From a phage: a DNA stretch of 64,000 nucleotides. Positions 9,131-28,330 of the stretch are shown here, in pieces. A program made the position numbers and the translations under genes. Each line of letters opens with the position of its first letter. Position 1 is the first letter of the stretch. A model generated the notes under the pieces. The model was given only the letters and a program-made list of their open reading frames with translations. It had not been told where the DNA came from and made no database searches. The stretch lies in the sequence record PX667085.1; one strand, 5' to 3'.

Positions 9131-11806
9131 TTAGTCGTAATATTTCAAACCTGTAATGAACTTCGATCCCCAATCCGCACTTGCGGCGGTGAACGTCAAC
9201 ATCCAAGTTGTAGCTGTACCAGTGAAGACCTCTCGTTGCACAGTACCATCAGTGTGGTAAATGTCCACGCCAGTATGTCCATTCTTAGGAATAGTGAAGG
9301 TAACAGCACTGGTAGTGTCTCGTGCATAAGAACAAACAAATGGTGTCCCCGCCCAAACTGGATTTGTCATATCACCCATCTCAAGCTGTGGAACCCAAGC
9401 AATAAGACCTGCCGTACCATCTCCTGCGAAAGTGTCTGATCCACTTGCATTCAAAGCTATAATCTCATAGGTTATAGATGCTTGTTTGGCAACTGTCACT
9501 TTGTGTAGAATTACACGATACCAACCGTTCCCCATATCGATTATGTTTGCATCTGCACCTGTAAATGTTCCAGCTACAAGATCATAAGTCCCTTCGTTAA
9601 TCTCATCTCCTGAAGTCAATTTGAGTTTCACTTTAGTGATCCCGTCTGGCTTCAAGAATACGGATGCCGCCCAGTGCTTACCTGCTGTAATATCAGAAGC
9701 TGTATTCACTGCTGATAAAATATGTTGTCCTGAAGTTGTAGAAGGTGTTAACTTGTAAGTGTTAGCCGTAGTTCCAACCGGAGAGTTGATTGTTGATGCT
9801 GTGACTGTCAAGTTCGTCTTCAACCACGGGGAAGCTGTTGTCAAGTTATTGTTGATAAAGATATGTGTACGGTTGGCTGCTACAACACGTCTACCTTGTG
9901 GAGTTGTACCAACATATTCTAAAGGTGCTACGGGAGCAGAACTCTCTGTAGGTACAAGGATATCTCCAGAAGCCCTGGCATAACGGTTACTCCTGTTGAC
10001 CTTTACATCCGCCGGAATAGTTTCTTGCGTCAAATCATAGTCCATCACAATGACCACAGCATTCACTGTGAGATAAGAACTATCTTCGGCAGTTACCACA
10101 CCTTGATAAGTTGCTCTACAACCGATACGACAACCTCCATCAGCAACCGCTGTAATAACGCCTGTAACGGGGTCAACTGTTGCTACCGTAGGGTCATTAG
10201 AGAAATACTCAACAACCATACCAGGTAAGCTTGCTGCTCCTGTTGGCGTTATTTCTGCTACCATTGTTTGTGTTGTTCCTACATCCATCGCAGATAAGCT
10301 AGGAGTGTAAACGCTCAATGTTGAAGCATATCCTCCAGAGGTATCTGATAAAGTTGTTCCTTCAGCGTTTAAGGCTGTCATACCTGCATCAAAACCACCT
10401 TCTGCATGGAAAGTCATTAAACCAGTAGATGATATTGTCATGTTTGCAGGGGCAGAAGAAGTGTATTTAATATTGAAAAGTTTACCTCCTTCTGGGCTAA
10501 CAGAATGTGTCAACTGTTTAGTTCCACCTACAATACAAATTCCTAAAGAATCTGTAGTTAAGCCAGTTGCCAGAATATCACCCGTAATCACGGAGCTTGC
10601 TATTGGTGTGAATTTATTATAGTTTAGACCACTATTGAACAGATACGAGGCTTTCCCATCTTTCCAAATACCGGAATAATACATATCCCCGTTATAAACG
10701 AAAAAGGTTCCTTGATAACCTAATTGGTTAGTAATATCCATATTCAGCGTATGAACGCTTGTGAGCTTGTTTATATCCCAGGAACCCACTCCTTCAGGTT
10801 TAACTGGTTTTCCCACTTGGAGTGGATCTCCGCTCGCAGAATCATACCCCAAACCTAAGTTTGCAGTGTAGTTCTTACCAATAGCCCACAAGGAATTGTT
10901 GATCCCAACGAAAAAAGAGTGGCGGTTTGGTGGAAATTTCCATGTTGAGAAACCTGCTGCAAAGGTATCCAGTTTAGTGTAGGTTGTTTCTGTATTAGAC
11001 CTGACATATAAGTAGTTTACCGTGCCCGTACCACCGGAGGTATCTCCTACAACTATTGTCTGGGAAACTGTATTGATGTAATCTTTGACATACACTGTTT
11101 CAGTAGCGGATATCGTGGCATTGACAAAAGCGGTTGTTGTGTTATTATTACCTGCTAAACCTTTACTAGCTCCACAAACACGCAAGGTTCCCACATTGTT
11201 GACATAAGAGCATTGGTTGTAACCTGCATCAAAAGCAACTGCTGAACTTGTTATCTGACGAGGAGTAGAAACTTCGTTAGTAGTGCTTGCACCTAAACTA
11301 CCTACTGTGTTTTGACCCGATCCATAAAGAACACCACTATTCATTAACCAGAGAGTATTGTTATACCCTCCTTTAACCTCTTTAAGATTGGCTAAAGAAA
11401 TAGTCCCTGTTATTACAGATGGAAAGCTGGTCCAAGTAGTTACACATGCATCCGTACCACCTGCTGCTATAGATCCTACCAACCCTGCTGTCAATCCTGA
11501 ATATTGCCATCCCCCACTGTTAGTTTTAATAACAAAACAACGATCTGCGGTAAACACATCCGCTACTACAGTAGAAGCTAAGTGGAAATTATTGAATCGT
11601 GCACTACGAGTTCCATCTGCAATCTCACCAAAGAGGTTTGCGCCTTGAGTAAACAATCTACCATCATTAAGCAAAATTGCCAAACTGCTGTTAGAATTAC
11701 CAGCGTTATCTGGGTAATCTAAAGTAATTACTTTTTTAACAATACCTGCTGGCAGAGGAACGACACCAGTGCTGGTCATAATAGTAAATATTGGAATTGG
11801 AAACAT
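9131..11806 (-). CDS. tail fibre / receptor-binding protein
   Basis: 891 aa, Gly/Thr/Ser/Asn-rich, last gene of minus-strand structural block; SD GGAGGG upstream. Confidence 0.5.
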   Translation of the reverse strand: MFPIPIFTIMTSTGVVPLPAGIVKKVITLDYPDNAGNSNSSLAILLNDGRLFTQGANLFGEIADGTRSARFNNFHLASTVVADVFTADRCFVIKTNSGGWQYSGLTAGLVGSIAAGGTDACVTTWTSFPSVITGTISLANLKEVKGGYNNTLWLMNSGVLYGSGQNTVGSLGASTTNEVSTPRQITSSAVAFDAGYNQCSYVNNVGTLRVCGASKGLAGNNNTTTAFVNATISATETVYVKDYINTVSQTIVVGDTSGGTGTVNYLYVRSNTETTYTKLDTFAAGFSTWKFPPNRHSFFVGINNSLWAIGKNYTANLGLGYDSASGDPLQVGKPVKPEGVGSWDINKLTSVHTLNMDITNQLGYQGTFFVYNGDMYYSGIWKDGKASYLFNSGLNYNKFTPIASSVITGDILATGLTTDSLGICIVGGTKQLTHSVSPEGGKLFNIKYTSSAPANMTISSTGLMTFHAEGGFDAGMTALNAEGTTLSDTSGGYASTLSVYTPSLSAMDVGTTQTMVAEITPTGAASLPGMVVEYFSNDPTVATVDPVTGVITAVADGGCRIGCRATYQGVVTAEDSSYLTVNAVVIVMDYDLTQETIPADVKVNRSNRYARASGDILVPTESSAPVAPLEYVGTTPQGRRVVAANRTHIFINNNLTTASPWLKTNLTVTASTINSPVGTTANTYKLTPSTTSGQHILSAVNTASDITAGKHWAASVFLKPDGITKVKLKLTSGDEINEGTYDLVAGTFTGADANIIDMGNGWYRVILHKVTVAKQASITYEIIALNASGSDTFAGDGTAGLIAWVPQLEMGDMTNPVWAGTPFVCSYARDTTSAVTFTIPKNGHTGVDIYHTDGTVQREVFTGTATTWMLTFTAASADWGSKFITGLKYYD

Positions 11807-11818
11807 TTAAACCCTCCA

Positions 11819-11846
11819 TAAAAAGAAAGCCCCTTTCGGGGCTTCT
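11819..11846 (-). terminator. terminator after collagen-like fibre gene
   Basis: minus-strand AAGCCCC-GAAA-GGGGCTT hairpin followed by TTCTTTTT. Confidence 0.5.
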
Positions 11847-11847
11847 G

Positions 11848-13872
11848 TTATCGTGTTACAACAACCATGTCCACGATATTACCCACACCAGGATACGTTA
11901 ATTGCAAAATTGTTACTGCGTTAGCAGTAGTTGCTATTTCTGTATCATTCAGTGCTCCATAAGACGCATCTAGTGTAACCGTGTGTCCCGTTGTATCTTG
12001 AATCAAATAAATCATTGCTGAAAATGCTTTAGGTTTTGTAGATCCAGTGACACCAGGCCATGCTCCAACTGTCAGAGCGTCAGTTACTGTAACAACATAC
12101 ATATTGGAAGTTCCAGAAGGAGTCCAAGATGCTCCAGAGTTGGCAGTAGTTGTTTCAAGTTCCATGAAACCTGCTGTAACTTTAGTTGGTGTTATAGCTT
12201 CTGTAGGATCTGATCCTGATATTTCGATCCAGTTCCCATCAGAACGACCATACGTCAAGCCGTCTTGAGGTGCTTCTGGTATACTAGGAAGAGTTCCTAT
12301 AAGTGTCCACGTAGAAGAATCTGTTTTCTTGAACACTGCTCCAGTGGTAGTATTGAAGGCGTAATCATTGATAACACCATCTCCTGCGACTGGATTAGTT
12401 GTTGCTACAAACCACTGTGCGCCGTCCTTACCGTTGGTCCCATCTGTACCGTTGGTTCCGTTTGTTCCAGGATCACCCTTATCTCCTTTATCCCCTTTTT
12501 CACCTTTGTCGCCTTTAATACTTCCCATGTCAACAAAAGATGCGGAATTGGTGTCTTGATCGTAGGTATAGATATAAAGATTACTAGTATCTTCAGTTAA
12601 GTAGGCATCACCATAGTTATTATAAACAGGGAGAGCTTCACTGTTCGGAACATGACCTTTAGCTGTAATTGATGTTCCTCCAAGACTGCCAACATTCATC
12701 CATTCTGTAGCATCTTGAACCCAAACATACAAATCATTATTAATTTTATATGCATCACCTACTTCTCCAGTAGGAGGAAGTTCAGCTTCACTGTTCAGAA
12801 CCCCGATAATCTCTAAGCCTGATCCTGTTGCACCCACTGGTCCTTGTGGACCTAGTTCACCTTGTGGACCTCGCTCTCCTTGATCACCCTTGTCTCCTTT
12901 TGGACCTTTAAGTGAGGCAATAAAATCTACTTCTGTCCCTTCATTACCAGCATCCAGCCAACTTTGATATGCAGATTTCCCTTCATCTCCATCTGTTCCA
13001 TCAAGACCGTCTTTACCTGCCTCACCTTGTGGACCTTGAGGACCAACAATATTACCCATGTTGACCCAAGCTGTCCCATTAGAGACATAAAGATTACCAT
13101 TGATAGAATAAGCTTGGCTTACGTTTTCAGAGTTAGGTTGTGGTAAGTTACTTGTAGAAGGTAAATCCCCACGATAATCAAAACCGTTGGCGTTAACACC
13201 AGGTGCTCCCTGTGGCCCTGTAGGACCAACATCACCTTTATCACCTTTTATAGAGGTAAGAAAGTCATAAACAGATCCTGTATTACCATCTGCCAACCAT
13301 ACCTCATAAGCTGATTTCCCTTCTGGTCCAAGAGAAGAAATAAGTTTCCAAACAGAACCATCCCAAGCATAGATTACATCGCCTACGATATAACCGTCCC
13401 CTGCAACGTTACCTGTAGATGGTAGCTCACTAGTGCTTGCTAATGATCCTTTAATATTAAGTTGAGCACCAGTATCTCCTTTCAAAGAAGCAAGCCATTG
13501 TGCTTCTGTTCCAACAAAACCATTATCAAGTGCGATCTGATAAGCTGATTTACCAGCTTCAGGTATTGTTTCCGACAGATCATCGATCTGTTGCTGCACT
13601 GCCGTAAACTTGGCATTGATAATTGCTATATCATCAGCGGTCCCAACATTTTGCCATGCAAGGGAAGAAATACCACCTGTGGTGGCTGGTGTAGAGTTTG
13701 CTGGAACTACTTTAGGAAAAGTTCCTTTCCATTGGTAATAATTCCCTTCTGCTGCTAACAGCAAAACTTCACGGGAATTACGTAATGTAAAACCTGCCTC
13801 AAAACTGCGACGTTTTCGATAAGTAGCTTCTACCAGATCGGCTATCGCACTATTAGGTCTTGTTAAATTCAT
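11848..13872 (-). CDS. tail fibre with collagen-like Gly-X-Y tracts and internal repeats
   Basis: GDKGDVGPTGPQGAPG, GPQGPQGEAGKDGLDGTDGDEGKSAY, GPKGDKGDQGERGPQGELGPQGPVGATG; repeated block GKSAY..W..G..G...DF..S.KG. Confidence 0.65.
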   Translation of the reverse strand: MNLTRPNSAIADLVEATYRKRRSFEAGFTLRNSREVLLLAAEGNYYQWKGTFPKVVPANSTPATTGGISSLAWQNVGTADDIAIINAKFTAVQQQIDDLSETIPEAGKSAYQIALDNGFVGTEAQWLASLKGDTGAQLNIKGSLASTSELPSTGNVAGDGYIVGDVIYAWDGSVWKLISSLGPEGKSAYEVWLADGNTGSVYDFLTSIKGDKGDVGPTGPQGAPGVNANGFDYRGDLPSTSNLPQPNSENVSQAYSINGNLYVSNGTAWVNMGNIVGPQGPQGEAGKDGLDGTDGDEGKSAYQSWLDAGNEGTEVDFIASLKGPKGDKGDQGERGPQGELGPQGPVGATGSGLEIIGVLNSEAELPPTGEVGDAYKINNDLYVWVQDATEWMNVGSLGGTSITAKGHVPNSEALPVYNNYGDAYLTEDTSNLYIYTYDQDTNSASFVDMGSIKGDKGEKGDKGDKGDPGTNGTNGTDGTNGKDGAQWFVATTNPVAGDGVINDYAFNTTTGAVFKKTDSSTWTLIGTLPSIPEAPQDGLTYGRSDGNWIEISGSDPTEAITPTKVTAGFMELETTTANSGASWTPSGTSNMYVVTVTDALTVGAWPGVTGSTKPKAFSAMIYLIQDTTGHTVTLDASYGALNDTEIATTANAVTILQLTYPGVGNIVDMVVVTR

Positions 13873-13927: not shown

Positions 13928-13934
13928 TATTCCA

Positions 13935-16900
13935 TTAGGTTGTTGGCACATCTACTACTGGCGTTGGGCGAATAACCGCAGTATTACCTACAGAAACATT
14001 ACTGGAATCATTAGGTATGGTTTTAATTCTAACTCCAGCACTTGTAGGCGTTACAATTGGATCTGCAATGTCTATTTTAACTGGGTTAGTCCACGTATCA
14101 TTATCTTGATAAGGTGCACGAGTAATAACTGTGTCCAAATCTGCTCCACCTACGCCAGCACCAGGAATACGGATACGTGTCCCTGCTGACAGAGGGTAAT
14201 GATACAACCAAGAAGCATTTGTTGCTGTCCCGTTAGGAGTCAAGTTCTGTGTCAGGAAGGTATCTCCTGCCTGTGTAGCTCGAATACCGAAAGCTGGGAT
14301 ATCTGGAATATATGCCCCACTTGTTGTTACAAGGAAGAACGTATTATCCGCCTTGACTATCATATCACCTTTGTCAAACTCTTTCCCTGTTGGGAAATGC
14401 ATTCCATCAATGTTTCGACTAGGATTAGGCTCTAAGTAATAAACTTTGCCCGTTGTCCCTACAATAGCTCCAATACCACCTGCGATATTGGTATACATAT
14501 TAGCTTCAACATTACAGTTGACACGATGAATATCCGAGTAACGGCAACGGCTCCACTGTGGACGACCAGTAACCATCGTCTTGCCATCTGGGTAACAGTT
14601 TACGTTAACCATTTCAAGAACAGATTTTTCTCTACGGAAGAATCCATCATAAAATGTCCCTGGACCAGATTCAGGTTGACCAACACAATCGAAGATATTA
14701 CAGGTGATGTTAGACATTGAAAGCCAAGAAGCTATACCGAACAACTGCAATGCAGCGCAACGAATATTTTCAAAGCTAACTCTGTTTTCATAACCTGGCC
14801 CAGCGGAAACTCCCGCAAAAACACGCCCAGTTTTGGTGTGAATGTTACGAACAGAATAGTTAAAACATGGATTTGAAGGTCTGCCCTGTGCCGGAACTAC
14901 CGGATTACCCTCTTCGTCCAGAACTGCGTTAGTTCCCCACTCCAAATAAATCATACGGATATTACTTGCAAGTGTGCTACCGTCTGTTTTAGGCTCTCCA
15001 TAAACACCGTCAATCGTAAAATCTTTACTTCCGTACATTACAACTGCGCCAGTTGCCAAACCTGTCCCAACAGATACAGTCTGATCTGGATCGCCATGAA
15101 TGTTTTCGATAGAGATATTACGACCAACTTCTACGTGGACAATCTGACGACAACGTTTTGCAAAAACGTTACGAATTGTAATATTCTTGCAATATTGATC
15201 ATCAGGGATTCCGTAACCATATGGTCCTTTACCAGCTACACCGATACCGATACCCCAGTTGGACAGAGGAATAGGAGCGTTAGTCCCATCGATATTAGAC
15301 AGGTAAATATTCTCAATCACACAACCATCGTCATAATGTTTATTGATGACGTTCAGTTCTATTGCATCACCTTGCATGTCCATGAAGGTAAGGTTACGGA
15401 AGACACCACGTGTTACTGGTTCCCCTGTTCCTTGTTGAAGGATGCCATACAACCCGTTTTTAAAAGTACAGTTATCAATTTCAAAAGTACCTGATATTGG
15501 GTTGCCTTGGAATACCAAGCTACCAACTTGACCTGCGCGAGGAGCACCGTCCCACAAACAATCGAACATGCGCACAGCACCACCCCAATACATAACACGA
15601 GAGTTACGGAAAGTTGTGCCTTCTACTGTAGCATTTTGCACACGATAGTCGCGTTGACCACGGAACACACCCCCACGCAAAGTGATACCTTGAATATCAA
15701 AAGAGCTTGTCGTGAAAGTCATATCGCAACCGTAAGCATCGAGAATCTTGCTTTTCGAAGATTTTGCTGCTAACAGTGCCGCTTGGAAAGCTGCTTCTGG
15801 TGTGGTATAGGTAGTTGTATTGTTAGCAAATTCGGACAAGTAGACAACATCGAATAAATCGTTGTATGTTCCACCACGAGGGGTTAACAGTCCTTCTGTA
15901 TTAGTCAGAACCCATGCATTTGGACCTAATCCTCCGCTCGTCTCCAAGGTATCGGAAGCCAAAATACTTTTTGGTAAACTTCCAGCCCAACGATAACGAC
16001 CAGCGCCACGTCCAATCGTCTGATTTTTAGCTGTCAGAGTTACATTATTACCAAAGCTTGTAGGCAAATGAACAAACTGTCCACGCTCAACAGCCAGTGC
16101 AGAAAGGTCTACAGATCCTCCAGAATAAGTCATTACTCCAGAAACAGACAAGGATGTTAAAGTGCCTGTAATGTTAGGAGGTAATGTGTAGGAAGACTGC
16201 GCTACCGGATCATACAGAGCTTTAATCCCTGTTAACGATTGACCTGCTGTTGCGTAAGCCACCTCATCATCTAACAAACCATACTTACGAGCAATAGTTT
16301 GCAGAGGGACTTTATCCATGCTTTCTGTTAGTTCTTCCGTTTTTGTTTCTAAACTAACAAGACGGTTCTCTAGATTAGGATCTGTATCTGCTGAAGCTAC
16401 GATTTTGCCAATATAAGCAAAAAGTTTGTTTGGCAGTCCTGTTGCAGGATCGTGTCCCAAAGGTTCAGATAAGATGATCTTACTATCTTCTATACGGAAA
16501 GCTTCCCCCAGAACCTGAATAACACCATTGATCGTAACAATAGCACTATCAAAGATGTAAGGAGGACTAATTACTGTTTCATAACCAGTTGCACCAGAAT
16601 ATACCCAAGGGGTGACTTCTGTTGCCAATTGTTCTGTCTTCAGTCCCCACAATACCCAGTTGTTATCTCCTACTGGAGTCCCTTGCATAGGGATTGGGTT
16701 AACCAATGTAGCGTTAGGGGCATAGTAATAACCGCTCAATACTCCATTCTGGAAATAACGAAGTTGGTTAAAAACTGTTTCGTTTGTGCCTTGCGCCCAA
16801 TCCAATGGGCTTTTAAAGAAAAAGTTGTCAACAAGGGCTTTTCTCAGGGTTGGTATCAACCCTGATTCTGTTTCAATACTCTCTGTAGCACTTCCATTAA

Positions 16901-16988
16901 TAACATCATGGAGTTGGTTAGATGAGAAAATAACCAGGTCTACGCCCTGTTCGAGAGACGTTGCTGGATATGTTGGGAATGTTGCCAT
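13935..16988 (-). CDS. tailspike-like protein, probable parallel beta-helix
   Basis: 1017 aa; recurring short N/G/I/V-rich turns (e.g. NITIRNVFAKRCRQIVHVEVGRNISIENIHGD) typical of beta-helix depolymerase spikes. Confidence 0.5.
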   Translation of the reverse strand: MATFPTYPATSLEQGVDLVIFSSNQLHDVINGSATESIETESGLIPTLRKALVDNFFFKSPLDWAQGTNETVFNQLRYFQNGVLSGYYYAPNATLVNPIPMQGTPVGDNNWVLWGLKTEQLATEVTPWVYSGATGYETVISPPYIFDSAIVTINGVIQVLGEAFRIEDSKIILSEPLGHDPATGLPNKLFAYIGKIVASADTDPNLENRLVSLETKTEELTESMDKVPLQTIARKYGLLDDEVAYATAGQSLTGIKALYDPVAQSSYTLPPNITGTLTSLSVSGVMTYSGGSVDLSALAVERGQFVHLPTSFGNNVTLTAKNQTIGRGAGRYRWAGSLPKSILASDTLETSGGLGPNAWVLTNTEGLLTPRGGTYNDLFDVVYLSEFANNTTTYTTPEAAFQAALLAAKSSKSKILDAYGCDMTFTTSSFDIQGITLRGGVFRGQRDYRVQNATVEGTTFRNSRVMYWGGAVRMFDCLWDGAPRAGQVGSLVFQGNPISGTFEIDNCTFKNGLYGILQQGTGEPVTRGVFRNLTFMDMQGDAIELNVINKHYDDGCVIENIYLSNIDGTNAPIPLSNWGIGIGVAGKGPYGYGIPDDQYCKNITIRNVFAKRCRQIVHVEVGRNISIENIHGDPDQTVSVGTGLATGAVVMYGSKDFTIDGVYGEPKTDGSTLASNIRMIYLEWGTNAVLDEEGNPVVPAQGRPSNPCFNYSVRNIHTKTGRVFAGVSAGPGYENRVSFENIRCAALQLFGIASWLSMSNITCNIFDCVGQPESGPGTFYDGFFRREKSVLEMVNVNCYPDGKTMVTGRPQWSRCRYSDIHRVNCNVEANMYTNIAGGIGAIVGTTGKVYYLEPNPSRNIDGMHFPTGKEFDKGDMIVKADNTFFLVTTSGAYIPDIPAFGIRATQAGDTFLTQNLTPNGTATNASWLYHYPLSAGTRIRIPGAGVGGADLDTVITRAPYQDNDTWTNPVKIDIADPIVTPTSAGVRIKTIPNDSSNVSVGNTAVIRPTPVVDVPTT

Positions 16989-16991: not shown

Positions 16992-17327
16992 TTACCCCTT
17001 ATTCTGTGTACGTTTAACTATGTCATCTAGCATCATTTGGATAGTCGCATTCTTGAGGTCCATAATCTTTTCAATTTTTTGCTCAAGGGTGTTATTATTT
17101 GCCATTAATGTAGAGTTAATTTGATTTAGCATCTGGGTAAGTTCGGCTTTAGTTGCATAAGTTGATTCAACAAAGACCAACTTCTTCTCTAGCTCTCGAC
17201 TTTTCTCCTCCATTTCCTCAAGATCAGAGCCGAATTTATCCATTTTTTGTTTGAAAAAGAACCAGATGACTCCGATTAAAGGGATTATTGCATCCTTTGC
17301 AAGTCCCCATGCTTCTTGAAATTCCAT
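16992..17327 (-). CDS. hypothetical membrane-anchored coiled-coil protein
   Basis: 111 aa; hydrophobic segment AIIPLIGVIWFFF then charged helical region. Confidence 0.35.
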   Translation of the reverse strand: MEFQEAWGLAKDAIIPLIGVIWFFFKQKMDKFGSDLEEMEEKSRELEKKLVFVESTYATKAELTQMLNQINSTLMANNNTLEQKIEKIMDLKNATIQMMLDDIVKRTQNKG

Positions 17328-17336: not shown

Positions 17337-17882
17337 TTATTCTGTCGGTAATGTAGGCCAATCTATAGCGTAAGGATAGTCTTTTTGAAGCGGAACACGA
17401 TTTAGTTTAACTACATAAACTTGAAGATTTTTAAGATAAGCTAATTCGTCTTCAGTAGCCATTTCTAAATCTTTAGCATACTGTAAAGGTGTTATAAGTG
17501 CTACCGCTGTTTCTTGTAAAGAGCGAATTTTTGCACTAGCTTGTGTCATCAACTCTTCACGGGAATACTCTTTATCCTTAAGAGTTAAGGTTTCTAAATC
17601 CAGAACCTTGTTCCTAATATCCTCAAAAGTATCTATATTAAAGTCTACTTGTGCTATAGAAAGATCTTCAGGGCAAAGTAGTGTAGGATCAGTATTCCAA
17701 AACACAATACGATTTTGATCATCAAAAACGACTTTCATTTTATCGTTATTGAATTCTGTGCTACGTAAATCATACCAATCGTAACCTTGATCGCAACGAA
17801 GAAAAAGAATGTTCTCTGCTTCTACCAATTCTTTTAGTTCAGGGTCTTCAGGAATATATTTTTTAAAGTTTGTAAATATCAT
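17337..17882 (-). CDS. hypothetical protein (possible fibre assembly factor)
   Basis: 181 aa ORF immediately downstream of fibre gene; no motif. Confidence 0.3.
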   Translation of the reverse strand: MIFTNFKKYIPEDPELKELVEAENILFLRCDQGYDWYDLRSTEFNNDKMKVVFDDQNRIVFWNTDPTLLCPEDLSIAQVDFNIDTFEDIRNKVLDLETLTLKDKEYSREELMTQASAKIRSLQETAVALITPLQYAKDLEMATEDELAYLKNLQVYVVKLNRVPLQKDYPYAIDWPTLPTE

Positions 17883-19585: not shown

Positions 19586-21073
19586 TTACACTCCATACTC
19601 GTAAGAAATGTTATCAAGGTCAAAAGAAGGGACAACATTATAAGCAGGAACTATATTATTCTCTGTATATTTACTGTCATCCTCAGTATTAAGTTTAACA
19701 TAAACACGAAGAGAAGTCAAGCGTCCAAAAGCAAGTGCTGCATAAATAACACCTTTGATTTGATCGTTCGTTACTGAAGAACCTAACTCAAAGTAAGCTT
19801 GCAGGTTTTGCAAAGCTTCTACGATGTTTTGTTTTTCTGTTCCACTTAAAGTTGTTCCGTTGACAGTTTGATAAACAAGTTTTACGGAATACATAGCAGA
19901 AGCACCAGGAGAGAAGCGAATAATTTCTTGTCCTCCATCTTCTGTTGTAACTGTTATGTTAGTTGTTCCGTGTGTCAAAGTGTTGATTGGTTTGGTTTTA
20001 TAGATAACATTTGCAATTTCTTCTGCACTGCCACCATAAACTATAGTCTGGAAAGTCATAGCTGGAGCATGTTCTTGATCGTGTAATGTGGGGTTATCGT
20101 AGATTTTCACTTTGGTAACACCATCTGTAAGCAGCAGTGCTTTCACAATAGCTGCTCGTGTCCCCGCATTAGCTTCATCCACATTATCATTGAAACGAGA
20201 GCGGAATTCTGCATCTGTCTCAACATCTCGACCAGGAGAAAACGAATAGAAGTTACCACTATCAAGATAACCTGTAAAGGTAGAAGATATCCCTGTAATA
20301 GACTCCACACCCACCGGATTGTATCCTTTCTCTGCTGCAACTACCGGAATTTCACTCCATTTGGTTCCAACTGGAACACTAGCATAAAATTTGATAGGAG
20401 TTACTAGTCCCACTGGAGTATCGCTGGTTAAAGAAGTAAAACCAATTGACAAGTTACCAGAATCAGAAAATACAAGACTACGATCAGCTTCTGTTAAATT
20501 CGCCTTGATAAAAGTTTCAAGATCGGTTATAAATGTAGAAGAACCAGGTGCAAGTGTTTTACTGTTTAGTCCTCCATCCACCGCACTTTGTGCATAAAAA
20601 GTAATATTTGGAACACCTGTAGCAGTTGCATTAGCACGGGAGATTTGATAAGCTGCAATCTTAGCATTCAACATAGTTGGTGTGCTAACATAGTAGTTCA
20701 TATCACTATCAGAGTTGAAATAAATATCTGTGCCTAGCTCATAAGTCCAAGCTGCTTTGTTATTACTCTTAACATATGCATAACCTGTACTTGCTGCTGC
20801 ACCTGCTCGATAGAAACCGCGTTTAGAAAAGATTTCATCAAGATAAATACCTTCTGCACCATCCAGTGTTTGAGTATTATAAACACCTTGCATACCTTCC
20901 CACAATGTGTAATCTGTGTATGCAATTATTCTAAACAGTTGTCCGATCACAGTATCTTCCGAAGTGGCTGCATCTGCACCAAATGTGTTTTTTACTGCTG
21001 TCATGTAGTTGTTTAAAACATCGTCAAAAGTCGGGATTACAAATCCCGCATCTGTCAAACCATATTCGTCCAT
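19586..21073 (-). CDS. baseplate structural protein
   Basis: 495 aa ORF by position and composition. Confidence 0.35.
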   Translation of the reverse strand: MDEYGLTDAGFVIPTFDDVLNNYMTAVKNTFGADAATSEDTVIGQLFRIIAYTDYTLWEGMQGVYNTQTLDGAEGIYLDEIFSKRGFYRAGAAASTGYAYVKSNNKAAWTYELGTDIYFNSDSDMNYYVSTPTMLNAKIAAYQISRANATATGVPNITFYAQSAVDGGLNSKTLAPGSSTFITDLETFIKANLTEADRSLVFSDSGNLSIGFTSLTSDTPVGLVTPIKFYASVPVGTKWSEIPVVAAEKGYNPVGVESITGISSTFTGYLDSGNFYSFSPGRDVETDAEFRSRFNDNVDEANAGTRAAIVKALLLTDGVTKVKIYDNPTLHDQEHAPAMTFQTIVYGGSAEEIANVIYKTKPINTLTHGTTNITVTTEDGGQEIIRFSPGASAMYSVKLVYQTVNGTTLSGTEKQNIVEALQNLQAYFELGSSVTNDQIKGVIYAALAFGRLTSLRVYVKLNTEDDSKYTENNIVPAYNVVPSFDLDNISYEYGV

Positions 21074-21336
21074 TAGTCATCCTCTTTGGTAGATTGTGAT
21101 CTGCCCCAACGTAAATCAATAAGATTTTTCATGAGGCGAGAAGGGGTTATCATGAAAACAAAAGCCCAACCCATCCATTCAGGAATTTCTTTTTCTATTC
21201 CTAAAAAGATAAACATGCCTGTCATAACCGACATGCCTACAGCGTTCCAGACTTTCGTAGAGCTTACCCCGTTGCCGGGGTAAGTGCAGAACATTCCACG
21301 AATAAATTTTTTAAAACCGTTTTTCTCTTTAGCCAT
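21073..21336 (-). CDS. small two-helix membrane protein (holin-like topology)
   Basis: 87 aa; two hydrophobic segments VGMSVMTGMFIFLGI and WMGWAFVFMITP; charged C-terminus RWGRSQSTKEDD. Confidence 0.35.
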   Translation of the reverse strand: MAKEKNGFKKFIRGMFCTYPGNGVSSTKVWNAVGMSVMTGMFIFLGIEKEIPEWMGWAFVFMITPSRLMKNLIDLRWGRSQSTKEDD

Positions 21337-21672
21337 GAGTACCTCTAAGTGAGATATAAAGATTGAAATACCGCCTAAGCGGTATTATTTACTTTCTAGG
21401 GTTGCAAGCCTTTCTTCAAGAGCTTTTAACTTTTTACGTTGATAAGCCATCTCAATAAAAAACATTTGGTCAGCGCGGATACCCCATCGCGATCCTGCTG
21501 GAGTTATTTCGATAGTTTCTACAACATCTTCTACGATTGTTACTGGATTACCTTACAACCTTCCCCTTCATCAAATAAAGGGATTTCTTTTTGTCCCGTA
21601 ACAACACTATCGTACATAACAGGGTATTCATCATAACACAGAAAAGCATACTTACAATCTTAGTTATTTTAT

Positions 21673-23283
21673 TTATACTATATTGATGGTCCCCGATATA
21701 CTTATGGCTCTTGCTGAACCGTCAGATACATCTGTCCAGTGTGCGTACCGAGTAGTTCCATCTATGAATGTTAATAAGAACTTAGCTGTATTATCTGACA
21801 CCACCTCTAAGGAAACATCGTATAATTGTTTAGCTGAGTTTGCTGTAGCATAGTAAAATGCGTACAGGCCGCCCCTAACTGTACCTCCAAATCCAGATTT
21901 AATGCCATAAACAGGAGCTATATTTACAATTACATCACCTGTTGCTGACGGTATAGCTGCTACTGTTGTAGCTATGGAAAAACTTAATGTGTTATACCAT
22001 ATTCCAGAGGTCAGAGTTTGGCTCGACATCGTTACACCATCAGCACTTGCAAGAACAGCCCCTGAATTGGGTCCAAAGGTCATTCCTGTACGCATTTTTT
22101 CAGCATATCCATAACCTGAAATGTGATTTCTGGCTATCCCTGAATTGTTTTCAAATGAAATCCATATGTCTGTTACATATTGCTCACCCGAAACCTGAAA
22201 ATCTTTTATTGTCGATCTTTGAGTCGTGGTGATCATTGGTAAGGTACTTTTTGCTACTGTGTCATGTCTGGACGGTAATACAAGAATCCCATCAAGAACG
22301 CAGTCCCATGCATCACAAATTACACCAACCCCACCATTACTTCTAGATGGTGCATTATTGGTGTTTTTCCTTACCGGAGTATCAAGAATAATATTTGAAT
22401 ATGTAGAAAAACCTGCGTTCTCTGTGATTACGATACCAACATTCATCTTCCCCATCACGCCTACGCGATTATCAACAGTGTTTCCCCAGGGGTGTGCTTT
22501 ATCAACCACATTTGCGCTCTTATTAAACTTTAGCCCAATTGAATAACCAACTGGCGAAAGTTCACTAAACCAACTGTCAGTTGAATTACTTTCAAATCCT
22601 ACAGAGTTATCAAGCCTTGTATTTGCTACAACCATCGTGAATTTGCTGGCTTTTCCTTCGTAGTTGTTCGTCTCATAGAACCCGCCATTATTAAAACCGA
22701 TGATTGCCCCTCCTTCGTAAGTCCATCCGTAGCAATGGCGAACACAAACACCTTTAGCAGAAATACCTGTTGTGTAATCCTCTGCTACTAAGAAGAGGTT
22801 ATAGCAATTTGTTTTGTTAGCTTTAGTAAAGTGATGGGAACTGCTGTATGTAGGAGTATCTGCTCCACCATCCATTATATAAGCATATTCAGCAGTTAAT
22901 CCTGACTTAACTTTAGCTACAGCGTTCCATCGCACAGTTACATTCTCTTTGTGCATAATAGGAAGGGATGTAAAGAGTATGTCCTCATTGACGAATAGTG
23001 TGCCACCACCATTAGCTGACAACTCAGACATCGCGGCGTTAAAACCTTCTTCTCCGGCCCCCCATCCCCGTACATCACCTTCATCTCTCCAGCGTGACAT
23101 TTGAAGTTCTGGGTACTTGGTAGCTCCAGAAATATCTTTTAACTGGGTGGCTAAAACCACCCCAGTGTCAGTAAGAAAGTTGGAAACTGTGCTTTTAACA
23201 GTCTTATCAGGTTGGTCTAAAACCAGGTAATCAGAACCATTAACTTTTGATGTTTCGGGTAAATTAGTAATTGTAGTTGACAT
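21673..23283 (-). CDS. tailspike-like protein
   Basis: 536 aa; Gly/Asn/Thr-rich repeat character. Confidence 0.4.
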   Translation of the reverse strand: MSTTITNLPETSKVNGSDYLVLDQPDKTVKSTVSNFLTDTGVVLATQLKDISGATKYPELQMSRWRDEGDVRGWGAGEEGFNAAMSELSANGGGTLFVNEDILFTSLPIMHKENVTVRWNAVAKVKSGLTAEYAYIMDGGADTPTYSSSHHFTKANKTNCYNLFLVAEDYTTGISAKGVCVRHCYGWTYEGGAIIGFNNGGFYETNNYEGKASKFTMVVANTRLDNSVGFESNSTDSWFSELSPVGYSIGLKFNKSANVVDKAHPWGNTVDNRVGVMGKMNVGIVITENAGFSTYSNIILDTPVRKNTNNAPSRSNGGVGVICDAWDCVLDGILVLPSRHDTVAKSTLPMITTTQRSTIKDFQVSGEQYVTDIWISFENNSGIARNHISGYGYAEKMRTGMTFGPNSGAVLASADGVTMSSQTLTSGIWYNTLSFSIATTVAAIPSATGDVIVNIAPVYGIKSGFGGTVRGGLYAFYYATANSAKQLYDVSLEVVSDNTAKFLLTFIDGTTRYAHWTDVSDGSARAISISGTINIV

Positions 23284-23291: not shown

Positions 23292-25445
23292 CTATATATA
23301 AAATTTTTGTGTTGTTACTAAATCTTCTCCAGATTTAGTGGCTAATGTAATTCCACTTATGGTGGCAATCTCAACATTTACCTGTTTAAGAGTGATATCC
23401 TGTAAATAAACGTTCAAAGGCACGTTACCCATATAGAAAACTTGGGATTGAGAATTAACTACCGTGATAGAATCGTGCATTATTTGAGGATAGGCCCATA
23501 TATATTGTGTAAGTCCATTGAACTTATTGGCGTTCAACACTATGTTACCTATAATCATCTTCCAAAGATATGTGCGGTAGTTTGATTCAGGATCAAAGCC
23601 ATACAAAGGTGCAAGAGTAGCATCTGGAACAAAACCTGCAAGATAGTGAATATCAGAATATTCAAAACCTAATTTTTCATGTGGTATGGTAATTGCATCA
23701 AATGCTTTCATCATTTTACCTTCCAGAAGCCAGTCGTAACACTCCGAACAGTAAAAATCAAAAGCTTCAGGAATGTAGTAATCAGACGGAAAGTTAACTT
23801 TCTCCATCAACCCGTTGCCAATAATTGATGGTAAGAATGGAAGCAATGTTACTTTAGCTCCTGGATAAGTTGCTCTAGTATCTGTTGCAAACTTTGTAAC
23901 TCTTAACCCTAGTTTACGAGACAAAAATGCATAGTATTCGTCAAATGGCGTTCCTGTTTTATAATTATCTATTGTTCCTGCATCTTGTGCAAATAAGCCT
24001 GTTTCTGTATTGAATGCCAGTTTGGTAGTGTAATCATATATACAAGGCATTTTACTTGCTGTATTATACCACCACCAAGGTTCACCAATTTGAATGACGA
24101 CTGGAATATTGTTAGCTTGAGAAATAGATGCTATTTTGTTAATAACATTTTGCAAATATTCCATACCTTCATCAATTGTTGGAGATAACACATAACTAGG
24201 CGGCTCATAACCTGTTGCTGCAAGAGCATCGTTCCAATCATGTTGAACCCATTCTACAGGACAAACTGTGCTCATCAACTCAAAACTCAAAGAGTTCATT
24301 ATTGTGTAGCCATTTTCATTAGCTATAGAATGGAAACTGTTAAGCCAAGCTTCTGTAGCCGGATTCAGGAAAACAGATCTATTCAAAGCCCAAGATGTTC
24401 CGTTCCATGAGAACTCATAATAGTGAGACATTCCGTTGTAATGGTTAATCATTCCACGATAACCTAGTGCATATGTATTATAAATAACTCTCTCTGGAGT
24501 CAGGTTATACATATCATCATAAGATGTGCACATGCGAATATCATGTTCAGGCTGGACAAGGTTGCTGACTTTCATCATACTGTAACCAGAAGTAGGTTCA
24601 AGAAGAGTGAAAGTAAACCAAGCCTCTTGACTGGCAATAGGCACAATCTCTTCTATTTCTTCATACCTTGCTGTAATCAAAGAGAAGAAAATATTATCTA
24701 CAGCACTCATATCCAAAGGAATATCATTATTAGGGCCAGAAAAGATATTACCAAAATCTAACTTGATTGTGGCTGTTTTACCATCTTCTGAAATATCTGA
24801 AGCGTAGAATCCTAAACTGACATAATGAACACTTTTATCCAAGAGAGTTACAGTCAAAGTCGGCACCAAAGGTTCTTCTTTAAAACCTGGCATGTTTTGA
24901 CTAATTTCCATTTTAAACCAAAGTTTCTCTGAACTTAAATCTGTGTGGGGTAAATACCCAACACCTTTGTGATCATATTTGTCAACTGTGCTCCAGATAA
25001 CCCCTGCCAAACCTGCTGTTGTTCTGTTTACAAATCTTGCAGTAAAAGAGTCTCCATGAGATACAATAGAACAACTTTCCGTTGCTTGAGAATCTATTGT
25101 CCAATACATAGGAGAGAACATTTTAACGTCTTTTGTAGTCCAAGTTATTGGAGTAGTATTTTCTTGGATAGTAGTTATAATACAATTGATGGTTGTTTCA
25201 ACCATCATGTTATTTTGACTAATCCCTGAAACTTGGAGGGAGAAGTTAAGATCTATTGAGTTCTTTGGTCGTTCAAATACTTCAACCACAATAGTAGCAG
25301 AATCAGCATCATCAGGGAACACAAGTGTTCCCGATTTTGCAATATAATCTCTACCAGCGACTGCTGTTCCATCAACAGTCGTGTAGTTAAATGAACTCGC
25401 ATTTACTCTCTTGTCTCGCGTGACAGTAAATATAGCTTGTTTCAT
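23292..25445 (-). CDS. large tail-associated protein (possible host-specificity protein)
   Basis: 717 aa ORF; N-terminal VDGTAVAGRDYIAKSGTLVF resembles a Calx-beta-like adhesion fold. Confidence 0.35.
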   Translation of the reverse strand: MKQAIFTVTRDKRVNASSFNYTTVDGTAVAGRDYIAKSGTLVFPDDADSATIVVEVFERPKNSIDLNFSLQVSGISQNNMMVETTINCIITTIQENTTPITWTTKDVKMFSPMYWTIDSQATESCSIVSHGDSFTARFVNRTTAGLAGVIWSTVDKYDHKGVGYLPHTDLSSEKLWFKMEISQNMPGFKEEPLVPTLTVTLLDKSVHYVSLGFYASDISEDGKTATIKLDFGNIFSGPNNDIPLDMSAVDNIFFSLITARYEEIEEIVPIASQEAWFTFTLLEPTSGYSMMKVSNLVQPEHDIRMCTSYDDMYNLTPERVIYNTYALGYRGMINHYNGMSHYYEFSWNGTSWALNRSVFLNPATEAWLNSFHSIANENGYTIMNSLSFELMSTVCPVEWVQHDWNDALAATGYEPPSYVLSPTIDEGMEYLQNVINKIASISQANNIPVVIQIGEPWWWYNTASKMPCIYDYTTKLAFNTETGLFAQDAGTIDNYKTGTPFDEYYAFLSRKLGLRVTKFATDTRATYPGAKVTLLPFLPSIIGNGLMEKVNFPSDYYIPEAFDFYCSECYDWLLEGKMMKAFDAITIPHEKLGFEYSDIHYLAGFVPDATLAPLYGFDPESNYRTYLWKMIIGNIVLNANKFNGLTQYIWAYPQIMHDSITVVNSQSQVFYMGNVPLNVYLQDITLKQVNVEIATISGITLATKSGEDLVTTQKFYI

Positions 25446-25453
25446 TTTACCCC

Positions 25454-28330
25454 TTACTCAGTAACGTCCACACTAATGTTTGCCATTGTCAAAACAGTAA
25501 GTGCAGGAATATTGCTCGAATCCAAAACAGGTAATGCATTTTGGGGATTAAGTTTTTTGTATAAAGCATACAACCCAAAACCACGTAACAACTCTCCAGC
25601 GTGGAAGCCAAAGAAGACTCCGTTATCACTGTCTGGTCTAGGAGCGGCACTCCAACAACCATTCATAACGTGATTAGGACCAAGAACAATATAATTTTCC
25701 TGAATAAGTTCAAAACAGCGGTCTGCTACTATTTTAATGTTAGGAATTTCTGAATCATATCCAGCCATCCCCATTATAGCACATCCCGCCATAAAGAGCG
25801 CAGACATGTGACTTGTAAAGTCATCTACAGGCGCAGCCACTTCTCCGTTAGGATAAAATATTGTTGGTGTTCTTCCTTCGTTGTTATCTTGGAACCACTT
25901 CAGATAGTTGATCCAGTTTTTACAAACTGTTAAAAGTTTTTCAGGAACTTCTGCTCCTCGTTGTTTCAGTTCGTATACTGTATGACACGCACAGAAGAAT
26001 GCTCGTGCTTCATAACCATCCCAAGCTTTATCGTTCCAATGATACATTGTGAACTCATTCTTGTTTCCGTATTTATGAGCATCCCAACGATCCCAAACAT
26101 AAGCTTGTGCCATTGGCCCAGGCATTACAGGGGCAAACTTATTATAAAACCACATTTGTGAATCATATAAAAAGTCTATACTGTTGTTCATACGAACCCA
26201 GTCAATATCTCTCCCTTTAAAACAATATAAGGATGGGTATTGATAACCTGGGTAAGGAATACCACGCCAACCGTCATATAATGCTGTATTAGGATCACTA
26301 ATATTGGAAAATGGAATGATTCCTGGAGTATAATTCAAACTGTCAAGTTTGTAGTCCAGTATTGTACAATCTCCAAGTTTTGCTGTATAAGGATTTTCAG
26401 ATGAAACTGTAACCCTGAAATACATTGTGTAATCATCACCAGCGGCTGAAGAATACAAAGATGGGATATCGTTAACGCAATAAAAGTCGATTGCCCCTGT
26501 CAAGCCATTTGCAGGTTCAGAATCCAATGCAATGTTGATCTGATCAACAGCAGTCAGGTTTATTGACGAAGGTTTTGTCTCTGTGTCATCGTGATTAGGT
26601 TGCCAAGTACTTAATTTGAAATCAGCAGGACTTAAAGCTTTAGTAACCCATGCAGAATTTGTTTTTTCTAACATAGCCCACCATCTCCAACCTGCGGAAT
26701 CCGTAATAGTGATGTTAAAATCATCTGCGTATGAACGATACGTAATAGATTTTAAATTGGCTGTTTTAGTTGGTGTTAACCAAAACCCAATAGTAAAACC
26801 ACCATCTGAATCCATATTAGCAGAAACTATCTGATCACTATTTGTCCCAGCAATACCAGTTGCATATTTATATTGTATCACAGTATTGCTTCCCCAGTCA
26901 ACAATGATTCTAGGTTCAGCAATAATATATACACCACCTCCAGGAGGTTCAGTGCGCATAAAACTGGATAAAGGTATATCCATCTTAGTCATATTAGCTG
27001 CACCAAGAGGTAAGCCACAACGATATGTCACTGTGTCTGTTTCACTCTTAGTCTTGCTTAATTCTAACTCTGGACGGAAAAGAACACCTTCCCCTGCATC
27101 ATCTACGCCTTGAAACTCAATACGTAGTTTTGAATTCTGATCCACTCTGAACCAAACTGCCTGTTGTTCTAGAGTTGTTTGTGCTGCAACATCTTGGCGA
27201 ATTACTGTGTATCCTAATTCGTCACGAGAATATTTAGGTATTGCTGTAGATGGGTATGAGTAATCATAAGAAATACCATCTGTAAAAGGAATTATTGCTG
27301 TCGTAGATCTACGGAAGAATTTATCAAACATATCGATGTTTGAGTAGTCTTGACACAGCAATAAAGAAGATTGCCAGCAAAGCCAGTATTTTCTCTCTCC
27401 TGTGATCTGATACATCAAGTAGTTTGCATCACACCACCACGTTTCAGCATCGGAAGCATTATCTTGATAACCTAACTCTACCGGAACGTTTACAGGACGG
27501 TTATGCCACATCTCATTACGTTTAAGTAGATACCCACCGTGTTCTACAGGGTTGCATGTAGCATAGTTGAATTTATAGTCACCGTTCACAGAAGCGTTTT
27601 TAAGTTGCACTGTTCCATATTCTGCAAAGCTATGACCAGTAGATAAAATGTTACCATCCCAATCAACTTTACGTCCTAGACGGTCTATAATCCATTCAAC
27701 GTCCCACTGATCTCCATATTCTTTCCAGTTGGTTGAACCATCTGGGTTAGTTGCATACACTGTTGCGTTAACAGAGTTCCAACCAAGATTACCATTGAAA
27801 GCAAACCAAGCTTTATCTAAGTATTCTCCCCAGTGTGGCGCACCTTTAGGAATAATAGTCCTTCCGTTAATCCAAGTCATCATGCTACCTTTGAACCCAC
27901 CGTGCGTAGGATACCCATCATCTGTGAGAGGGTAATGTGCTAAACGTGGTTCTTTACCATTGATGATCCAGTTGGGACGATATTTAGCCGGAGGATCAGG
28001 AATAGGTTGGCCCCCGAAGAAGTGATCTATATAAGCTTGCCAATACTTCTCGGCAGATTCAAGATATTTTTTATCCCCTGTAGCCAAATATGCATAAGCA
28101 AAACCAGTGATAAGCACAGATTGACCTTCGGTAGTAGCGTCACCGTTTGGTTGCCCTTCCTGCGCTGTCCAGTTAATAAAGTGTCTGTTGTTCGCCAATA
28201 CGTTTTGTGGGTTGATAATGTAATGCTGAACCGTAGGATCTATGGTAAGCCCAGTATTTCTTTCCAAAAACTGAACCAACCCTTCAATCAACTGAAACGT
28301 GTTGTCAATATTGTGCTTAACTCTTGACAT
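25454..28330 (-). CDS. large tail-associated protein, possible polysaccharide-degrading domain
   Basis: 958 aa; aromatic-rich; no catalytic motif confidently recognised. Confidence 0.35.
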   Translation of the reverse strand: MSRVKHNIDNTFQLIEGLVQFLERNTGLTIDPTVQHYIINPQNVLANNRHFINWTAQEGQPNGDATTEGQSVLITGFAYAYLATGDKKYLESAEKYWQAYIDHFFGGQPIPDPPAKYRPNWIINGKEPRLAHYPLTDDGYPTHGGFKGSMMTWINGRTIIPKGAPHWGEYLDKAWFAFNGNLGWNSVNATVYATNPDGSTNWKEYGDQWDVEWIIDRLGRKVDWDGNILSTGHSFAEYGTVQLKNASVNGDYKFNYATCNPVEHGGYLLKRNEMWHNRPVNVPVELGYQDNASDAETWWCDANYLMYQITGERKYWLCWQSSLLLCQDYSNIDMFDKFFRRSTTAIIPFTDGISYDYSYPSTAIPKYSRDELGYTVIRQDVAAQTTLEQQAVWFRVDQNSKLRIEFQGVDDAGEGVLFRPELELSKTKSETDTVTYRCGLPLGAANMTKMDIPLSSFMRTEPPGGGVYIIAEPRIIVDWGSNTVIQYKYATGIAGTNSDQIVSANMDSDGGFTIGFWLTPTKTANLKSITYRSYADDFNITITDSAGWRWWAMLEKTNSAWVTKALSPADFKLSTWQPNHDDTETKPSSINLTAVDQINIALDSEPANGLTGAIDFYCVNDIPSLYSSAAGDDYTMYFRVTVSSENPYTAKLGDCTILDYKLDSLNYTPGIIPFSNISDPNTALYDGWRGIPYPGYQYPSLYCFKGRDIDWVRMNNSIDFLYDSQMWFYNKFAPVMPGPMAQAYVWDRWDAHKYGNKNEFTMYHWNDKAWDGYEARAFFCACHTVYELKQRGAEVPEKLLTVCKNWINYLKWFQDNNEGRTPTIFYPNGEVAAPVDDFTSHMSALFMAGCAIMGMAGYDSEIPNIKIVADRCFELIQENYIVLGPNHVMNGCWSAAPRPDSDNGVFFGFHAGELLRGFGLYALYKKLNPQNALPVLDSSNIPALTVLTMANISVDVTE

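Follow-up and report, generated by a model that had tools for sequence, protein, structure and literature searches.

Seven large tail genes of phage sequence PX667085.1: a probable phi92/phAPEC8-type host-adsorption module with an exchangeable tailspike

We have analysed the tail region of a phage DNA (sequence record PX667085.1), a stretch of 64,000 nucleotides that we refer to as the window. Between positions 9131 and 28330 it carries seven large open reading frames (ORFs) on the minus strand, which we name g1–g7 in window order, from the one at 9131 to the one at 25454. The region is very probably the host-adsorption module of a contractile-tailed E. coli/Shigella myovirus of the phi92/phAPEC8 type, in which multivalent glycan-binding and glycan-cleaving virion proteins are arranged around a simple P2/Mu-like baseplate. 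A multi-receptor 'Swiss-army-knife' tail has already been described for the phi92/phAPEC8 group, and for Vequintavirinae, Phapecoctavirus and phages like phi92 the BASEL papers speak of a 'nanosized Swiss army knife'; the finding is correct, ordinary and already known. Our analysis documents the presence, orthology, domain content and folds of these genes, together with the modular swap of g5 and natural fusions of a gpI wedge domain with g7 and of g7 with g6.

An earlier note on this DNA, made from the letters alone, had reported seven large minus-strand tail genes encoding 353-1017 amino acids (aa). The ORF scan places all seven at exactly the starts then given, with lengths for g1–g7 of 891, 674, 1017, 353, 536, 717 and 958 aa, and each is an annotated coding sequence in Escherichia phage ECO340P1 (GenBank OP172791.1), which is 100% identical to window positions 9131-28330; the observation is thereby confirmed. 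With a G+C content of 39%, ORFs of 353-1017 codons far exceed what is expected by chance, and all seven have strong homologues. The GenBank record assigns ECO340P1 to the genus Phapecoctavirus, subfamily Stephanstirmvirinae, and gives Shigella flexneri DA340 as the isolation host. phAPEC8 and dozens of relatives share 97-98% identity across 89-93% of the 19.2-kb stretch. The seven genes are as follows, with their counterparts in phi92 and the identities obtained by tblastn against the phi92 locus.

9131..11806, minus strand: g1, 891 aa; RCC1-type beta-propeller (aa ~40-320), Big_2 immunoglobulin (Ig) domain (aa ~505-559) and C-terminal domain of the gene transfer agent (GTA) head-spike-fibre type (aa ~615-831); matched by phi92 gp152 in the Ig part only (g1 aa 411-587)
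11848..13872, minus strand: g2, 674 aa; collagen-like tail fibre with a Tail_spike_N anchor at the N-terminus; phi92 gp151, 60%
13935..16988, minus strand: g3, 1017 aa; colanidase-type beta-helix tailspike of the phi92 gp150 family; phi92 gp150, 75% over aa 1-215 and 33% over the beta-helix (aa 455-1007), with aa ~216-454 unmatched
17883..18944, minus strand: g4, 353 aa; short tail fibre (phrog_4465, tail fibre); phi92 gp147 (fibre III), 75% over aa 1-267, with a differing tip
21673..23283, minus strand: g5, 536 aa; tailspike in the gp143 slot, clade N-terminal adaptor and beta-helix body; phi92 gp143 endosialidase precursor, 70% over aa 1-112 only
23292..25445, minus strand: g6, 717 aa; gp142 orthologue, Calx-beta, NCTSP_N and NCTSP TIM barrel; phi92 gp142, 77%
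25454..28330, minus strand: g7, 958 aa; gp141 orthologue, globular (alpha/alpha)6-barrel, glycoside hydrolase (GH)-like, with two beta-sandwich insertions; phi92 gp141, 83%

The features of composition that had been noticed in the letters are recovered by profile and structure searches. Two proteins are of the beta-helix kind: residues 426-1000 of g3 align to the crystal structure of phi92 gp150 (6E0V, E = 1.4e-79), which places g3 in the gp150 family, and the AlphaFold2 model of g5 is beta-helical. The collagen-like tracts belong to g2, which has four G-X-Y runs of 6, 8, 10 and 11 triplets separated by repeated globular modules, and Pfam matches to Collagen and to Tail_spike_N (aa 12-77, 1.9e-19). 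The Calx-beta N-terminus is that of g6 (PF03160, aa 4-82, 42.5 bits against a cut-off of 27). The description of all seven products as fibre or spike-like has to be amended for g7, a globular (alpha/alpha)6-barrel, and for g6, a Calx-beta/TIM-barrel protein, both of which are enzyme-like.

The closest well-studied system is phi92, a Justusliebigvirus of the same subfamily, with which the gene order gp140–gp151 is matched. The tail proteins of the window are 60-87% identical to the phi92 locus in conserved order, the chaperone (counterpart of gp148) excepted, and syntenic orthologues of gp141, gp142, the gp143 slot, gp147, gp150 and gp151 surround the gp145/gp146 wedge genes. Together with the place of ECO340P1 in the Stephanstirmvirinae, this bears out the likeness to the multi-spike adsorption apparatus of broad-host-range myoviruses that the earlier note had proposed. 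The multivalent apparatus of phi92 was described by Schwarzer et al. (2012, J Virol 86:10384); as tabulated in a later review, gp141 and gp142 are glycosidases, gp143 is an endosialidase, gp150 is a colanidase tailspike and gp151 is a potential tail fibre (PMC5380687). A cryo-electron microscopy (cryo-EM) study of 2026 found three fibre types on phi92, with six copies of each co-expressed on one particle; fibre III is gp147, gp143 was inferred to lie at the tip of the L-shaped fibre I, fibre II originates at the base of fibre I, and fibres I and III attach to gp145 (PMC13450770). The simultaneous display of several fibres on one baseplate has been seen for phi92 and is predicted for ECO340P1.

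g5 is an exchangeable tailspike made up of two parts, a clade-specific adaptor and a receptor-binding body of horizontal origin. Over the first ~76 residues it hardly differs from phi92 gp143, and the alignment reaches residue 112. Residues 44-535, on the other hand, share 94% identity with the tail protein of PH1061, a T7-like phage of 40 kb, and 86% with that of pO91; proteins of a Hafnia phage and of the Salmonella phage LPST94 (157 kb) match the body at 67% identity. In a large protein collection, bodies of the g5 type also stand behind P22-type head-binding domains (in E. coli prophages, for example in NZ_CP070930 and NZ_CM142781), behind T7 tail-fibre N-termini and behind Tail_spike_N; four different N-terminal anchors occur among the homologues of g5. 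A motif at aa ~44-76, shared with T7-like and P22-like spikes, contains the 5' crossover.

The AlphaFold2 model of g5 consists of a right-handed beta-helix followed by a C-terminal beta-sandwich, and a Foldseek search with this model returned 30 matches at E <= 1e-3; tailspikes make up nearly all of these, and the top ones, Det7 gp208, Sf6, CBA120 TSP2 and HK620, are tailspikes specific for O-antigen. The spikes of P22, Sf6, HK620, Det7 (gp208) and CBA120 (TSP2) have the same body plan as g5, in which the anchor is the phi92 gp143-type N-terminus. With a beta-helix body behind an exchangeable particle-binding domain, g5 belongs, at moderate model confidence, with the tailspikes of the P22/Sf6/HK620 type, although no sequence similarity to the solved spikes was detected beyond aa 42-92. 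Only three complete E. coli genomes were found to have a homologous prophage spike, and their names include no serotype.

Downstream of g5 there is an apparent intergenic gap of 336 nt (21337-21672), within which lies a further element.

21388..21668, minus strand: frameshifted non-coding relic, corresponding to the last ~98 codons of the C-terminal intramolecular chaperone domain of the ancestral endosialidase

tblastn with phi92 gp143 matches the relic over gp143 residues 821-860 at 78% and 864-918 at 96%, in two frames and with an in-frame stop; at the DNA level it is 94% identical to phAPEC8 and 87% identical to phi92. The relic is a recombination scar and marks the 3' breakpoint at which one tailspike cassette was replaced by another.

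The gp143 slot is a hotspot within Phapecoctavirus. In phi92 it holds a 918-aa endosialidase, in ECO340P1 the 536-aa beta-helix spike. phAPEC8, Ro121c4YLVW and ESCO13, all of them Phapecoctavirus, show identical synteny, with at least 99% identity in six of the seven proteins; the spike slot is the only variable site. phAPEC8 has a 921-aa endosialidase-like protein there and Ro121c4YLVW a 762-aa spike with a 102-aa fragment, while ESCO13 has no spike gene in the slot, in contrast to the spike and chaperone-domain relic of ECO340P1.

ESCO13 provides a separate observation on g6. Its g6 orthologue (locus L007, 13697-15760) has 687 aa, aligns to g6 over aa 1-683 only, is annotated 'capsid protein' and directly abuts the small membrane-protein gene. 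It looks as if a deletion took out the spike together with the C-terminus of g6.

g2 and g3 have one type of domain in common, Tail_spike_N. In g3, residues 226-370 match the N-terminal domains of CBA120 TSP3/TSP4 and G7C gp63.1, with Pfam Tail_spike_N at aa 302-361. These tailspike N-terminal-type domains form an extra internal block of ~210-240 residues (aa ~216 to ~425/454) that is missing from phi92 gp150, and on which g2, with this domain at its own N-terminus, could dock. A WcaM-like segment in g3 explains the 'colanic acid' label, and the degradation of colanic acid is cited for gp150 (PMC13450770). The N-terminal domain of g2 matches the PDB entries 9vvr, 5w6h and 4oj5 and its C-terminal fibre-tip domain matches the tail fibre 9cuy_g. 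The C-terminus of g4 matches the short tail fibre 9cuy_c (4.9e-23), and the gene order J-like, I-like, g4, Caudo_TAP is that of short fibres of the P2 gpH/Mu gpS type.

g1 is a putative adhesin, a single 891-aa protein that combines RCC1, Ig and GTA-tip domains, in contrast to phi92, where only the Ig part is matched. It scores 73.7 bits against NCBIfam GTA_spike_fiber (cut-off 36) and matches Rcc01080 in the PDB (6tb9, 5.7e-14). Residues 1-584 are conserved, whereas some Phapecoctavirus genomes have a different sequence in place of residues 585-891, which is what one would expect of a distal binding tip. The protein ('TfpM1') has been reported to be absent from Justusliebigvirus (PMC12695924).

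We have considered whether g1 might instead be an adhesin that decorates the head, neck or tail tube, Hoc-like or GTA-head-spike-like, in which case the tail would carry six such proteins and not seven. The closest solved relative of its C-terminal domain is the RcGTA head spike fibre, but the same domain is found in an annotated tail fibre (RcapMu) and in minor tail proteins of siphophages. Decoration proteins commonly have Ig domains of the Big_2 type, the PHROG matches of g1 include 'structural protein with Ig domain' and 'major tail protein', and its phi92 counterpart gp152 is annotated with a lambda gpV-like fold. Pfam finds neither Tail_spike_N nor any other anchor at the N-terminus, and g1 is the final gene of the operon; however, it directly follows the fibre genes, and its C-terminal third is allelic between close relatives in the manner of distal receptor-binding tips. 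We regard a position of g1 outside the tail apparatus as unlikely, though worth keeping in view; a decoration protein would in any case remain an adhesin for host glycans.

g7 is neither a fibre nor a spike. We read it as a mobile, virion-borne, glycosidase-like module of the receptor apparatus, probably the conserved proximal enzymatic arm. Sequence searches with g7 gave no match in Pfam, NCBIfam or the PDB (phmmer). The family is large and well conserved: phages and prophages of Enterobacteria, Pseudomonas, Stenotrophomonas and marine bacteria have members with 42-55% full-length identity, and more than 80 positions are invariant, among them the acidic residues D294, E296, D336, D750 and E913. 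The AlphaFold2 model, built from 68 homologues (pLDDT 88, pTM 0.83), shows a discontinuous helical barrel with two beta-sandwich insertions. Sequence identity to the (alpha/alpha)6-barrel superfamily (GH8, GH76, GH88/GH105 and AGE) is 8-14%, and the barrel of g7 is split by its two large insertions, unlike the barrels of that GH/epimerase superfamily. Sequence did not assign g7 to a GH family: Pfam, NCBIfam, the phmmer search of the PDB and the 68-sequence profile all lacked a significant match. A role as tape measure, hub or T4 gp10/gp7-like protein is excluded by the fold and by the separate genes for tape measure, hub, spike, plug and Dit-like protein.

Two natural fusions bear on the place of g7 in the particle. 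In one homologue (P0087) a Tail_P2_I wedge domain precedes the g7 module; in a P2-like prophage its gene takes the gpI position, next in line after gpV, gpW and gpJ. In P2 the fibre gene H adjoins the gpI position. In the other (P0096) the g7 module precedes NCTSP_N and the NCTSP TIM barrel, so that g7 and g6 are joined in one protein, and the gene comes after the adaptor gene of a Kuravirus-like podophage. Further homologues of g7 have a glycine-rich C-terminal domain and lie beside a tail fibre gene. These two fusions suggest the order wedge, g7, g6.

A g7 homologue is also found in an unusual place for a glycosidase-like module. On an E. coli/Enterobacter prophage contig (L009, 9001-11823), the gene of a 940-aa protein with 53% identity belongs to a lambda-like siphoviral prophage, where it has a tail-tube-like gene on one side and the chaperone/tape-measure genes on the other. 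Homologues of this type are common in Enterobacter and E. coli chromosomes.

g6 is related to proteins of phage N4. Besides Calx-beta, Pfam identifies NCTSP_N (PF23844, aa 107-292, 60.1 bits) and the NCTSP TIM barrel (PF23845, aa 299-658, 266.4 bits), both with a cut-off of 27, so that g6 has the two domains of an N4 gp64/gp65-type (NCTSP) module. The PDB matches are to N4 Gp64 (9lc0_M, 6e-30) and to the N4 non-contractile sheath protein gp65 (9lc0_I, 2e-12). In N4, gp64 and gp65 form a receptor-binding non-contractile sheath (PMC13434306). Comparison with these proteins (PDB 9LC0, 9YF4; PMC13434306) shows that the TIM barrel is shared with gp64 and NCTSP_N with gp65; in N4 two proteins wrap a short podovirus tail, whose plug they gate, whereas g6 holds both domains in one protein, together with Calx-beta, on a phage with a contractile-tail baseplate. 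No NfrA-binding region was identified in g6 in this comparison. The homology of N4 Gp64 to a fibre protein of the clade has been linked to a shared dependence on wecB, later ascribed to the N4 glycan receptor (NGR), and dependence on the NGR glycan (nfrA/nfrB/wecB) has been reported for Vequintavirinae and phi92-like phages (PMC8594841, PMC8669472, PMC11990801). We regard g6 as a candidate module for this conserved receptor.

The same homology explains the misleading GenBank name of g6, 'non-contractile tail sheath', the origin of which is clear from the PDB matches to N4. We rejected the idea that the name reflects a sheath-like or siphoviral trait, as it was taken over from N4 gp65, and the tail of this phage is of the ordinary contractile kind, with its own orthologue of the sheath. 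The papers found for 'non-contractile tail sheath' reuse the term in annotations, and a search of the Campylobacter literature gave none with the phrase.

The remainder of the tail region consists of smaller genes. Upstream (5') of the cluster, on the same strand, the order is major capsid protein, DUF3383 sheath orthologue, tube, chaperones and tape measure, followed by a Dit-like tube initiator, a Pam3-gp18-like plug, an E217-gp41-like hub and an iron-loaded central spike of the phi92 type. After the central spike come a 208-aa orthologue of the phi92 sheath initiator gp139 and then a 157-aa protein. The cluster itself runs g7, g6, g5, 87-aa protein, Baseplate_J-like, gpI-like, g4, Caudo_TAP chaperone, 111-aa protein, g3, g2, g1. 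The additional genes are listed with tblastn identities to phi92.

28330..28803, minus strand: 157-aa protein, phi92 gp140 homologue, 83%
21073..21336, minus strand: 87-aa conserved protein, phi92 gp144 homologue, 83%; annotated as a membrane protein in phi92
19586..21073, minus strand: baseplate wedge, gpJ/gp6-like (Pfam Baseplate_J); phi92 gp145, 80%
18954..19583, minus strand: baseplate wedge, gpI-like (Pfam DUF2612; phrog_4056, baseplate protein); phi92 gp146, 87%
17337..17882, minus strand: tail fibre assembly chaperone for g4 (Pfam Caudo_TAP, 3.2e-13; phrog_136)
16992..17327, minus strand: 111-aa conserved protein, phi92 gp149 homologue, 76%; annotated as a lipoprotein in phi92 and relatives

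The chaperone had no tblastn match in the phi92 locus at 1e-5, and both it and the tip of g4 differ from phi92, as if the chaperone co-varies with the tip. The 111-aa protein between the chaperone and g3 had no informative Pfam match. The 157-aa protein is annotated as a tail fibre protein in relatives, and its homologue gp140 is listed as a fibre-like candidate in the 2026 study of phi92 (PMC13450770). Its N-terminal motif weakly resembles the N-terminus of g5 (pairwise, E = 0.007), and it may belong with the appendage proteins as a small eighth member, which the earlier note left out of its count.

Some database records with unexpected host labels contain tail genes 77-99.8% identical to those of ECO340P1, an identity with which these labels do not readily agree. 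They are labelled as phages of Campylobacter, Acinetobacter and Pseudomonas (MG065650, 'Campylobacter phage B15'; OP562383, 'Acinetobacter phage vB_AbaM_ABPW7'; OR584014, 'Pseudomonas phage PsgM04F'), and may reflect contamination, mislabelling or truly polyvalent phages.

The core baseplate has smaller genes of its own, and the seven large genes are peripheral. The earlier note had recognized that its proposal would fail if most of the seven were baseplate or internal virion proteins. None resembles an internal or core baseplate protein; the core baseplate genes (Baseplate_J, gpI-like, hub, spike, plug and Dit-like) are separate, smaller and located in or beside the cluster.

A narrower version of that concern is that several of the seven, g7 and g6 especially, are structural scaffolds of the baseplate or arm with no receptor or enzyme role, which would leave two or three true receptor-binding proteins (g5, g3 and g4). 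The two are conserved between genera like wedge proteins, with 83 and 77% identity to phi92 compared with 80-87% for gpJ and gpI; they are at least 99% identical within Phapecoctavirus, unlike typical host-range determinants, and they are placed between the sheath-initiator gene and the wedge genes. A conserved target glycan such as NGR would, however, itself predict the conservation of g7 and g6. The N4 proteins gp64 and gp65 are also architectural, forming a sheath around the tail, but they are known for receptor recognition and g6 is homologous to them. The fold of g7 is of a carbohydrate-active-enzyme type with many invariant polar and aromatic residues, and its homologues in other phages occupy the usual position of a fibre. 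In addition, the phi92 analysis of 2012, in the form relayed by the review, labelled both gp141 and gp142 as glycosidases (PMC5380687). A purely structural role for the pair therefore appears improbable.

Shared anchors were sought by an all-against-all BLASTP comparison of 18 tail-module proteins, the earlier note having proposed that the N-termini be aligned. Apart from a Tail_spike_N match between g2 and g3 (E = 0.005) there were no shared N-termini, and one common anchor for all seven is ruled out. It is highly improbable that the locus is an Ackermannviridae-type (CBA120) branched tailspike complex, whose branch starts from gp10-like XD domains in a pair of spikes. Although Tail_spike_N is present in g2 and g3 and residues 226-370 of g3 align to the N-terminal domains of CBA120 TSP3/TSP4, this domain is common to just two of the seven with no other shared N-termini, Pfam finds no gp10-like XD/Gp10_C domain in any of them, and the gene order, the P2/Mu-like wedge baseplate and the taxonomy are all those of Stephanstirmvirinae. 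With Tail_spike_N as the sole shared domain and no gp10-like XD detected, the locus works like the Ackermannviridae branched complex yet is not a member of it. A branched docking arrangement is suggested by the shared N-terminal domains, by the cryo-EM of phi92, in which fibre II leaves the base of fibre I, and by the fusions of g7.

Several points weigh against the reading of the region as a multivalent adsorption module. The incorporation of all seven proteins into the virion is assumed from relatives. The confidence of the g5 model is moderate (pLDDT 75, with Foldseek TM scores of 0.3-0.4). The beta-helix of g3 is just 33% identical to that of gp150, so that colanidase specificity is not assured. 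g1 has no recognizable N-terminal anchor, and among proteins of solved structure its nearest relative belongs to a head spike and not to a tail fibre. g7 was not placed in any GH family by sequence, the best match of its 68-sequence profile being to GH76 with a marginal E value of 0.018. Finally, the cryo-EM study of phi92 left fibre II and the arm of fibre I without a gene, and gp141 and gp142 are absent from its fibre candidates (PMC13450770).

The last point, taken with the fusions, leads us to a tentative suggestion. g7 and g6 may possibly account for the unassigned peripheral density of phi92-type baseplates, that is fibre II and/or the L-shaped arm of fibre I, with g7 seated on the wedge and carrying g6, and with the conserved ~76-110-residue N-terminus of g5/gp143 plugged into this arm; we hold this arrangement to be rather doubtful as it stands. 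If it were true, the arm would be a chain of globular glycan-processing enzymes aimed at NGR and not a trimeric fibre, and this would explain why screens for fibre-like AlphaFold models missed the arm genes. The fusion evidence is a testable lead on the genes behind the unassigned phi92 cryo-EM fibres, and we put it forward as a hypothesis and not as a discovery.

The mechanism that is best supported is the published picture for the clade, within which we infer the specific ligands, enzyme activities, docking partners and docking order of the seven proteins; how many distinct glycans are targeted is likewise a matter of prediction. The conserved pair of g7, (alpha/alpha)6 glycosidase-like, and g6, with its N4 gp64/gp65-type TIM barrel, would deal with the conserved enterobacterial glycan NGR, and this engagement would allow the phage to pass the O-antigen layer. 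The exchangeable g5 spike, held on a clade-specific adaptor of ~76-110 residues, would recognize and probably cleave strain-specific O-antigen or capsule, while the colanidase-type spike g3 would remove colanic-acid-like slime. Extra contacts would be supplied by the collagen-like fibre g2 and by the RCC1/Ig/GTA-tip adhesin g1. The short fibre g4, folded with the help of its chaperone, would bind the lipopolysaccharide core, and its rearrangement would trigger sheath contraction, as has been shown for the rearrangement of gp147 in phi92.

phi92, phAPEC8 and rV5-type phages are used in therapy and biocontrol, and their broad host recognition is accounted for by a set of tail proteins that act on glycans. 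Should the assignment of g7 and g6 to the arm prove true, the (alpha/alpha)6 module would represent a widespread unrecognized class of receptor-binding proteins or depolymerases in P2-like, Kuravirus-like and siphoviral prophages. The swap of g5 is a clean example of the retuning of host range, in which one slot has been exchanged by recombination at a short 5' motif and a relic of the chaperone domain has been left behind. Engineering could make use of a natural plug-in site for new tailspike bodies, marked by the conserved adaptor of g5 (aa 1 to ~76) together with its junction motif.

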